Source: Escherichia coli
Lineage (GTDB): Bacteria; Pseudomonadota; Gammaproteobacteria; Enterobacterales; Enterobacteriaceae
DNA length: 64,000 nucleotides
Assembly: GCF_046105845.1 (NCBI RefSeq)
Contig: NZ_CP151004.1
Strand: one strand, 5' to 3'
Part shown: piece after piece, positions 45,901 to 48,900 of the stretch
Position numbering within the stretch: the stretch's first letter is position 1
Layout of the letters: each line of letters starts with the position of its first letter
Translations under genes and position numbers: made by a program
The notes under the pieces: generated by a model
Databases searched by the model: none
The model's input: only the letters and a program-made list of their open reading frames with translations
Told to the model about the DNA's origin: nothing

Positions 45901-48900
45901 CCTGATGCAGGGGTACACCATTGCCGTAATTATCATTCACCGTAATGTACAGAGCGGTATCCTCGCCTGCCAATTGTGTGTCATAAAGGGTATAAAGCGA
46001 GGTGAGATGTGCCGTAGACGCATCAGCGTCGACTTGAATGGACGTGCTAAGCGCGGAGCTACCATTTTCCAGGCTAGCTTCAATGGTATCCGGTCTCGCT
46101 CCTGTTTCTCTCGAGGAGCGGGTATTGGTATAAGTGACGGTAGCTTTACCCTGTTCGTTCGTCACGGCTTGGCCGCCGTTCGTCATTTCGGCAGATTTTG
46201 TTCTGCTGGTAAAGCTCACAGTCACACCTTTTACCGGAAAGCCATTATTATCAACGACTGTGGCGGTAATGACGCTGCCGGAGCTGTTCTGCGGGGTACC
46301 GGCGGTTATGCGGTCTGGCACAGCCGTCAACTCGATAATTTTTGCCGCCGCTGTGTCGCCAATAAAATGCACAGTTTTGTTGTCGCTGGCACCATTATTA
46401 GCCAGTGATGCAGTGACCGTCTGCTCACCAAAGGCAACGCCTGCGAGAGTGGCCTGCGCGATGCCAGACTCATTGGTATTACTCACTCCCGGGGTCAGGG
46501 TGAGTCCTGAAGAGGCTGAGCTGAATGTTACCGGAAGATTGTTCACCTCATTGTCGAACTGATCTTTAACCGTTGCAGTTAGCGTTGCGTTATCGACGCC
46601 ATTACCTGTGATCTCATCTTTTGACATCTGCAGGACAACCTGAGCCGAGGTTTTGTCCGCCACAAACGTTACCGGCTGCGAATCACTGGTATTGTTATTA
46701 CCCAGCGTTGCGGTAACCGTATGCGTGCCCGCTTTTTTGCCTTTGAGGGTGACATGCGCTTCGCCATTGGCCTGAGTGATGGCAATACCGTTACTTTCGA
46801 GGGTAAAGTTTGCCGCAACGTCCTGTGGCATGGTGAAGTTCACCGTTATTCCCGCCACCGGATGATTCGACGGATCTTTCACCGTTGCCGTAAGCTGCAC
46901 GCTGTCACTGTTATTCGTCACCACCTGTTGAGCAGGGATGTTCAGGGTGACCTGCGCGTTGCTGGTATCGGGCGCAATATTGACTGTTGTCGTATAGCCA
47001 TTGCCGTTAAGCAGTGTGGCTTCGACTGTATGAACACCCAAAACCGTGCCCTTAAGGGTAACTTCAGCAATACCACTGTCGTTAGTATTGCTCGTGCTCT
47101 GACTAAGTTGAGTATCAGCCGGGTTAGTACTAAAGGTGACCGGTAGATCTTTTACTACGTTATCAAAAGGATCTTTCACTGTTGCTGTCAGCGTTGTCTC
47201 ATCCACGCCATTCCCAATGATTTCCGCTTTCGATGTTTGCAGAACGACAACTGCACTGTCCTTATCCGCCACGAATGTGACTGGCTGCGCATCGCTGGCA
47301 TTATTGTTACCCAGCGTTGCGGTAACCGTATGCGTGCCCGCTTTTTTGCCTTTGAGCGTGACATGCGCTTCGCCATTGGCCTGAGTGATGGCAATACCGT
47401 TATTTTCAAGGGTAAAGTTTGCCGCCACGTCCTGTGGCATGGTGAAGTTCACCGTTATTCCCGCCACCGGATGATTCGACGGATCTTTCACCGTCGCCGT
47501 CAGCTGCACGCTGTCACTGTTATTCGTCACCACCTGTTGAGCAGGGATATTCAGCGTGACTAGCGCGTTGCTGGCATCGGGCGCAATATTGACTGTCTTC
47601 GTATCTCTGTTGCCGTTAAGCAGTATGGCTTCGGCTGTATGAACACCCAAAACCGTGCCCTTAAGGGTAACTTCAGCAACACCACTGTCGTTAGTATTGC
47701 TCGTGCTCTGACTAAGTTGAGTATCAGCCGGGTTAGTACTGAAGGTGACCGGTAGATCTTTTACTACGTTATCAAAAGGATCTTTCACTGTTGCTGTCAG
47801 CGTTGTCTCATCCACGCCATTCCCAATGATTTCCGCTTTCGATGTTTGCAGAACGACAACCGCGCTGTTCTTATCCGCCACGAATGTGACGGGTTGCGCA
47901 TCGCTGGCATTATTGTTACCCAGCGTTGCGGTAACCGTATGCGTGCCCGCTTTTTTGCCTTTGAGGGTCACATGCGCTTCGCCATTGGCCTGAGTGATGG
48001 CAATACCGTTATTTTCAAGGGTAAAGTTTGCCGCCACGTCCTGTGGCATGGTGAAGTTCACCGTTATTCCCGCCACCGGATGATTCGACGGATCTTTCAC
48101 CGTCGCCGTCAGCTGCACGCTGTCACTGTTATTCGTCACCACCTGTTGAGCAGGGATATTCAGCGTGACTAGCGCGTTGCTGGCATCGGGCGCAATATTG
48201 ACTGTCTTCGTATCTCTGTTGCCGTTAAGCAGTATGGCTTCGGCTGTATGAACACCCAAAACCGTGCCCTTAAGGGTAACTTCAGCAATACCGTTCTCAT
48301 TAGTATTACGCGCGTTCAGACTTAGTTGCGTGTCTGCGGGAGAGGTGCGGAAGACTACTGACAGATTTTTAACCACGTTATCAAAAGGATCTTTCACTGT
48401 TGCTGTCAGAGTCGTCTCATCCACGCCATTCCCAATGATTTCCGCTTTCGATGTTTGTAGAACGACAACCGCTCTGTCTTTATCCGCCACAAACGTCATT
48501 GGCTGTGCATCGCTGACATTGCTGTTAGCCAGACGAGCCGTGATCATATGCGTGCCCGCTAACGTGCCGGTCAGGGAGGCGATGGCAACCCCGTTACTAT
48601 CCGTCATGCCTTTTCCGCCGTTGCTAATCGAGAACCGACTTGCGACGTCGTTTGGCACAGTGAAGGTGATTTCTTTATCTTTTAGTGGGTTGCCATTTTT
48701 ATCCTGCAAGGTTGCAGTCATATGTTGCGGAGCTGTGTTGGTGACGGTGATATCACCTGAAGGCACACTGAGGGTCAGGGCAGCAGTACTTTGATCACCG
48801 ATAAAATTCACCTGTTGATTGGCCTGGGAACCAGAGCTCACAGAGGCCGTAACCCTATAATCACCGTTTTTTAAACTGGTCAGCGTAGCTGTGGCGATCC

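Follow-up and report, generated by a model that had tools for sequence, protein, structure and literature searches.

Why YeeJ, an Escherichia coli surface protein, differs so much in length between strains is the question raised by the yeeJ gene in a 64,000-nt stretch of E. coli DNA (assembly GCF_046105845.1, contig NZ_CP151004.1; hereafter, the window). A first-pass annotation of this DNA had pointed to a tandem array of long repeats in yeeJ and had put the protein at about 2870 aa against about 2358 aa in K-12, and both lengths proved exact. It had also considered the array prone to recombination and possibly an artefact of assembly. Taken together, our analyses make it probable, at roughly 0.85, that the window holds a real array of 609-nt units, that recombination in this array drives changes in the length of the YeeJ stalk, that the K-12 form originated by deletion and that additional units give the protein a longer reach.

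The coding sequence of yeeJ extends from 42983 to 51595 on the minus strand, comprising 8613 nt of intact open reading frame (ORF) that encode 2870 aa plus the stop. The gene is the yeeJ orthologue, since its neighbours are as in K-12 (the order mtfA, tRNA-Asn, yeeJ, a family 9 glycosyltransferase gene and shiA corresponds to the K-12 yeeJ position) and over the first 1035 aa its product shares 98.2% identity with K-12 YeeJ. After the array the identity drops to 82% (passenger region encoded by 43376-46663), with about 47% in the last 130 aa. As the start we took the ATG at 51595, which is the choice of the Prokaryotic Genome Annotation Pipeline in close relatives and gives the same length and start as the PCN033 protein WP_244468252. 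The ORF finder reported 42983..51670, and other possible starts lie upstream at 51622 (2879 aa) and at 51670 (TTG).

When the ORF (42983-51670) was compared with itself, a single dominant shift of 609 nt was observed, with 1145 windows of 300 nt at least 80% identical and the best at 100%; the off-diagonal expected in a self dot-plot of the gene was thus present. A shift of 1218 nt peaked at 95% identity, and the best shift other than multiples of 609 reached only 57%. In agreement with this, a repeat-family search returned copies at spacings of 609, 609 and 609 nt, the fourth (B0) with 62% nucleotide identity, and a degenerate motif for the start of the A domain (see below) matched exactly four times, 609 nt apart, where shuffled sequences gave an expectation of 0. 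Tandem Repeats Finder reported no repeat, although its longest period of 500 nt is below 609 nt and the result is therefore uninformative. The array occupies 46664-48490, about 140 to 260 nt away from the 46400-48350 initially proposed, and consists of three in-frame units of 609 nt, or 203 codons, each, which in gene orientation run 48490..47882 (U1), 47881..47273 (U2) and 47272..46664 (U3). The features of the array and its immediate surroundings are as follows.

48491..48802, minus strand: B0 (aa 932-1035), a diverged B-type immunoglobulin (Ig)-like domain directly upstream of the array, 40-42% identical in aa to B1-B3.
47882..48490, minus strand: unit U1 (aa 1036-1238), made of A1 (48188-48490) and B1 (47882-48187), 97.0% identical in nt to U1 of PCN033.
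47273..47881, minus strand: unit U2 (aa 1239-1441), made of A2 (47579-47881) and B2 (47273-47578), a chimera with a U3-type 5' end and a U1-type 3' end.
46664..47272, minus strand: unit U3 (aa 1442-1644), made of A3 (46970-47272) and B3 (46664-46969), 95.7% identical in nt to U3 of PCN033.
46364..46663, minus strand: A4 (aa 1645-1744), a diverged A-type Ig-like domain directly downstream of the array, 56-59% identical in aa to A1-A3.
47361..47679, no strand assigned: the longest perfect repeat (319 nt), with zero mismatches at a shift of 609 and its partner copy at 47970-48288.
47634..47684, minus strand: switch of U2 from U3-type to U1-type affinity in the pattern of informative sites, the putative point of unequal crossover.

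The units had been described as near-identical, with very few substitutions, and this holds only in part. Pairwise they differ at 40 (U1/U2, 93.4% identical), 33 (U2/U3, 94.6%) and 65 (U1/U3, 89.3%) nucleotide positions, so that overall identity is 89-95% in nt and 89-94% in aa. The differences are clustered, however, as a result of which a perfect 319-nt repeat remains, the longest perfect tracts between units being 319, 119 and 68 nt. More diverged flanking copies had also been announced, and they are present in the form of the half-units B0 and A4. Two plus-strand ORFs that cross the array, 45833-46408 and 48264-48794, were discarded as antisense shadows of the long gene.

Each 203-aa unit is composed of two Big_1 Ig-like domains, A (101 aa) followed by B (102 aa), and with self-comparison, motif spacing and Pfam in agreement, the description as three tandem 609-bp units of about 203 aa with two Big domains apiece was confirmed. 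A and B domains share 36-39% aa identity, while across units the A domains are 83-93% and the B domains 95-100% identical, B1 and B2 having the same protein sequence. For U2, an AlphaFold model based on aligned di-domains from YeeJ itself presented two beta-sandwiches (predicted local distance difference test score 94.5, predicted template modelling score 0.80). The best solved structures found in a fold search with this model were intimin D0-D1 (6TPL), InvE (5N40), InvD (5LDY), FdeC (4E9L) and invasin (1CWV), all of them stalk segments of inverse autotransporters, and a sequence search of the unit against the PDB returned a weak intimin match.

An assembly artefact would mean that the repeat had been mis-counted and that the true gene has fewer or more units. 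Short-read assemblies do break at this place, as 'partial' YeeJ proteins of 1029-1376 aa from the same 90% cluster end inside the array, and the perfect 319-nt repeat is longer than typical short reads. Nevertheless, the three units differ at 33 to 65 positions and each can be recognized. The exact window protein is public as WP_409023967.1 / HFX4492493.1 (E. coli) on two assemblies, and the separate record GCA_044249515.1 is 100% identical to the window across 14,613 nt. Moreover, at least 28 complete E. coli genomes, including NCTC9038, carry an array of the same length in one ungapped alignment. Compared by unit position, the window and PCN033 are 97.0% (U1), 96.6% (U2) and 95.7% (U3) identical in nt, closer than the units within the window are to each other, which is not expected of a mis-assembled collapse or expansion. 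We consider a mis-counted repeat hardly credible in view of the identical record, the complete genomes and the distinguishable, position-matched units. Many YeeJ proteins labelled partial in the databases stop at window positions of about 47480-48480. Since short-read contigs end in the array, survey calls of truncated yeeJ may be assembly breaks.

Among complete genomes, YeeJ falls into length classes that follow the number of units: 2870 aa with three units, 2667, 2668 or 2660 aa with two, 2464 or 2465 aa with one, and 2358 aa in the K-12 form. The 2660-aa form of O157 has the length of the published UMN026 variant. The array region was kept in 2926 of 5426 complete genomes, and of 60 evenly spaced genomes drawn from these 2926, approximately 31 were K-12-type and approximately 24 carried two-unit alleles; single-unit alleles accounted for one to three genomes and the three-unit allele for one. 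A search for longer arrays, of at least four units, was negative for the 120 best protein clusters, for the 60 top-ranking genomes and for the evenly sampled 60. In genomes with the three-unit, PCN033-like allele, four to six separate places matched the yeeJ query. A yeeJ remnant covering 22-29% of the query was found in 17 of 40 evenly sampled genomes (for example, sequence type 131 strain EC958 and 'clone D i2'), and IS3/IS1203 insertion sequence (IS) elements interrupt yeeJ in some O157:H7 strains. The reading frame was intact in every length class examined, and on-off phase variation was ruled out on the grounds that the unit is a multiple of three and the frame is kept in all of these classes. 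Regarding the ancestral state beyond E. coli, the degenerate A-domain-start motif was run against bacterial genomes, one for each species, and gave no Escherichia match and only 10 single chance matches in unrelated taxa.

Footprints of recombination were found in the units themselves. Over the 65 sites at which U1 and U3 differ, U2 is U3-like up to unit nt 198 and U1-like from nt 248 (window 47634-47684), and this single switch is the product expected from a crossover between two misaligned two-unit arrays. The last unit of a two-unit allele, U2 of AST215, is 96.9% identical in nt to U3 of the window. The three-unit allele of the window looks like a two-unit allele with a chimeric middle unit added by unequal crossing-over. 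The middle unit of PCN033 presents a different and more complex mosaic, which implies either a second event of this kind or later gene conversion. The single unit of E700025 corresponds to PCN033 U1 (nt 1-588) joined to U3 (nt 589-609) with one mismatch, and outside the array the E700025 (one unit) and PCN033 (three units) alleles show three nt differences in 6786; on this comparison, the E700025 allele is best described as a clean, recent contraction of 1218 nt. In the single unit of NT1F31 the type switches mid-unit, indicating an origin separate from that of E700025. Because the units are chimeric and the breakpoints differ, the sequences indicate repeated unequal crossing-over in the array. 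The suspicion that the array is recombination-prone and changes the length of the protein was therefore borne out by three-, two- and one-unit alleles, a K-12 deletion allele and different crossover points.

The K-12 gene matches the O157-type two-unit allele from which exactly 906 nt have been removed, and the two show no further indel. The junction falls in a microhomology of 8-11 nt, AAAGATCC, within the LTATVKDP motif that is common to A and B domains, and at codon ~1067 (MG1655) it joins the first ~31 residues of A1 to the remainder of B2. The 906 nt resolve as 609 + 297 nt, one whole unit and an in-register step. These alignments show that K-12 YeeJ derives from a two-unit allele by a single 906-nt deletion at the microhomology and has a hybrid A1/B2 Ig domain.

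The alleles show that misaligned homologous recombination between units gains or loses whole units while keeping the frame; the make-up of the unit places long DNA homology one period apart and leaves neighbouring protein domains dissimilar. RecA-mediated exchange in E. coli needs ~25-30 bp of homology, and the 319-, 119- and 68-nt tracts are far above this. Identical neighbouring domains are prone to misfold together. That the two-domain period is an anti-misfolding design that keeps DNA homology, and that selection tunes copy number to how thick the O-antigen or capsule of a strain is, letting the alternative lectin-like tips reach beyond that layer, we regard as a doubtful extension.

By its predicted architecture, the YeeJ of the window is an inverse autotransporter (type Ve) adhesin. 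Its remaining parts are listed below.

50339..51166, minus strand: outer-membrane beta-barrel translocator, IAT_beta (aa 144-419; PF11924, E 9e-113, profile positions 2-279 of 279).
43919..49999, minus strand: passenger stalk of tandem Ig-like (Big_1 / Invasin_D3) domains (aa about 533-2559; 18 Big_1 stretches in Pfam, E 1e-294).
42986..43375, minus strand: C-terminal tip (last 130 aa), an allelic form unlike that of K-12 and O157, ~47% identical in aa to K-12 and 100% to PCN033, AST215 and E700025.

An in-house hidden Markov model delimited 18 contiguous Ig-like domains at aa 733-2559. Towards the C-terminus, Invasin_D4 was a marginal Pfam match at aa 2678-2751 (28.6 bits against a cut-off of 27), and the last 145 aa matched no Pfam family. 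At the other end, LysM (PF01476) matched weakly at aa 78-99 (E 0.038, 14.4 bits against a cut-off of 20.9) in a region ~98% identical to K-12 YeeJ, for whose LysM peptidoglycan binding has been demonstrated experimentally (PMC5595812). The N-terminal 836 aa scored strongly against the NCBIfam IatC N-terminal model. Two allelic families of tip were observed, one in the window, PCN033, AST215, E700025 and NT1F31 and the other in K-12 and O157, ~47% identical over the last 130 aa. The form of the window occurs in neither published YeeJ variant and may bind a different ligand.

YeeJ length polymorphism is real but already known. Martinez-Gil et al. (2017, Sci Rep 7:11326, PMC5595812) described two variants, 906 bp apart, and attributed the difference to 'three additional Big domains made of a repeated section'. 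Their MG1655 and UMN026 variants concern the same gene, tRNA-Asn locus and passenger region, and the published 906-bp difference is the array described here. Compared with UMN026, the window has one more 609-nt unit (three instead of two) and 21 additional nt in the distal passenger and tip, and its tip is about 47% identical to that of the published variants over the last 130 aa. Only two variants were published, whereas the present comparison separates a minimum of four length classes and two types of tip.

Length variation through repeat number is also covered by the Periscope Protein concept, which includes inverse autotransporters (PMC8201768, PMC9704523). In Dataset S1 of Whelan et al. 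(2021, PNAS, PMC8201768), YeeJ is cluster 53, with two to three Invasin_D3 repeats that are 94% identical as protein and 98% as DNA; the repeat length given in their table is 119 aa, compared with the true period of 203 aa. Like Periscope Proteins, YeeJ is a single-chain protein of the cell surface whose folded stalk domains are encoded by long tandem DNA repeats of high similarity, present in strain-variable number, and its repeat number differs among close homologues (three, two, one and the deletion form). We infer its attachment to the cell surface from the IAT barrel and from experiments on K-12 YeeJ (PMC5595812). The di-domain model resembles known rod segments, and the repeats may form a rod-like stalk that scales with their number. 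In contrast to typical Periscope Proteins, which have highly identical adjacent domains, A and B are 36-39% identical and high identity recurs at every second domain only, so that the YeeJ unit is a pair of dissimilar domains; the range of copies is also small.

Intimin, invasin, FdeC, InvD and InvE share with YeeJ the IAT beta-barrel, the Big_1/Invasin_D3 rod and probably a distal lectin-like tip, for which YeeJ has the marginal Invasin_D4 match. Their domains are mutually diverged and their stalks short (four to five domains in intimin and invasin), whereas YeeJ has about 20 domains with a young, variable block inside. YrIlm / YrInv of Yersinia ruckeri are inverse autotransporters with near-identical Ig domains that arose by internal duplication, as far as described where PMC6714894 cites Wrobel et al. 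(2018). On the same account, near-identical single domains of YrIlm are directly adjacent, in contrast to the two-domain period of YeeJ. The alpha C/Rib/R28 proteins of streptococci and SasG/Aap of staphylococci likewise carry long, in-frame tandem repeats whose number changes by recombination and with it the length of the protein. They differ in being Gram-positive and sortase-anchored, with other folds, repeats that are far more alike and a wider range of copy number that extends to tens, and immune selection on length has been shown for this group and not for YeeJ.

Between units, the ratio of non-synonymous to synonymous substitution rates (dN/dS) is 0.17-0.20 and dS reaches 0.33. The units of the first and the last type are therefore old, and selection on them is purifying and not diversifying. 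The likely effect of array variation is a change in stalk length. Invasin measures about 18 nm for five domains, hence ~3.5-4 nm per Ig domain. By this analogy, each unit would lengthen the rod that bears the C-terminal lectin-like tip by roughly 7-8 nm, and the allele of the window would hold its tip about five domains further out than K-12 YeeJ. Several observations weigh against such a reading. Copy number is modest (three or fewer in all genomes sampled) and mostly stable within allele lineages, and given this small range YeeJ ranks as a weak 'periscope' next to SasG or Rib. Whether units were gained (two to three) or lost (three to two) is read only from the chimeric structure of U2, and a dependence on RecA is presumed on account of how long the perfect tracts are. 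For the source strain, copy number rests on two assemblies, possibly of the same isolate. Lastly, in the work of Martinez-Gil et al. (PMC5595812), which also covers the surface exposure of YeeJ and its role in biofilm, the MG1655 and UMN026 variants produced no difference in biofilm.

These last points bear on the idea that changes in copy number simply follow from the DNA being repeated and are selectively neutral, with stalk length having no phenotypic effect within the range observed. The equal behaviour of the two variants in biofilm assays (PMC5595812) is consistent with it, as are the small range, from the K-12 form to three units, and the fact that E. coli often carries yeeJ in a truncated or IS-disrupted form or as a remnant. 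On the other hand, purifying selection acts on the units (dN/dS about 0.2), frames are intact in each length class examined, and in the published assays YeeJ was over-expressed in K-12 cells that lack O-antigen, a background in which reach may be of no importance. A neutral array is thus a possibility to be taken seriously, without being the one we favour. The exchange of patches between mosaic units could instead be read as antigenic variation or immune evasion, as in alpha C and Rib of group B streptococci, and for Rib-type proteins immune selection for shorter arrays has been reported (PMC9704523). Yet dN/dS values of 0.17-0.20 reveal no diversifying selection and argue against antigenic diversification; they lend no support to the change in antigenicity that the first-pass annotation had suggested. 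B1 and B2 are the same protein and the differences between units are mostly synonymous, which makes such a role improbable for YeeJ. It seems similarly unlikely that the A-B pairs are ligand-binding modules whose copy number tunes avidity rather than reach. Their strong conservation and the ligand functions known for some repeat domains of periscope-type proteins (PMC8201768) would fit this proposal, but no binding motif or family was detected in the units beyond the stalk-type Big_1/Invasin_D3, and the solved structures closest to them come from the stalks of intimin, invasin, FdeC and InvD. We therefore retain recombination-driven change of stalk length, with a longer reach, as the preferred reading.

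The surroundings of yeeJ were also inspected. Four tRNA-Asn(GTT) genes lie within the 64-kb window, at 32352-32427, 34760-34835, 36584-36659 and 51908-51983, the last of which adjoins yeeJ directly upstream. This site has been discussed as a hot spot for recombination and island insertion (Martinez-Gil et al., PMC5595812), and in the window no island is inserted at the tRNA-Asn site upstream of yeeJ. On the other side, a family 9 glycosyltransferase gene (yeeL; 41359-42411, plus strand) is convergent with yeeJ; it is intact in the window (350 aa), in contrast to the K-12 yeeL, which is a pseudogene with an internal stop. A relationship of yeeL to the autotransporter heptosyltransferase TibC was considered and dropped, there being no sequence match among solved structures; weak similarity to lipopolysaccharide heptosyltransferase I was detected. 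Flanking core genes (30000-42900 and 51700-64000) matched best at 97.3-98.8% identity among the 5426 complete E. coli genomes, and only 259 genomes covered at least 80% of the region 30000-42900 in one place. The lineage of the source strain seems to be poorly represented among those genomes.

Our understanding of how such adhesins work is unchanged by these results. What they add to the known polymorphism of YeeJ is the 203-aa, two-domain period with dissimilar adjacent domains, the four length classes, the deletion origin of the K-12 form and direct evidence for recurrent crossovers. Calls of yeeJ presence or 'truncation' in surveys need long reads, as alleles differ by whole units and short-read assemblies break in the array or may mis-count it. 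For work on the protein itself, it matters that experiments and surface-display engineering have used the K-12 YeeJ, which the results show to be a deletion derivative whose stalk contains a hybrid Ig domain.

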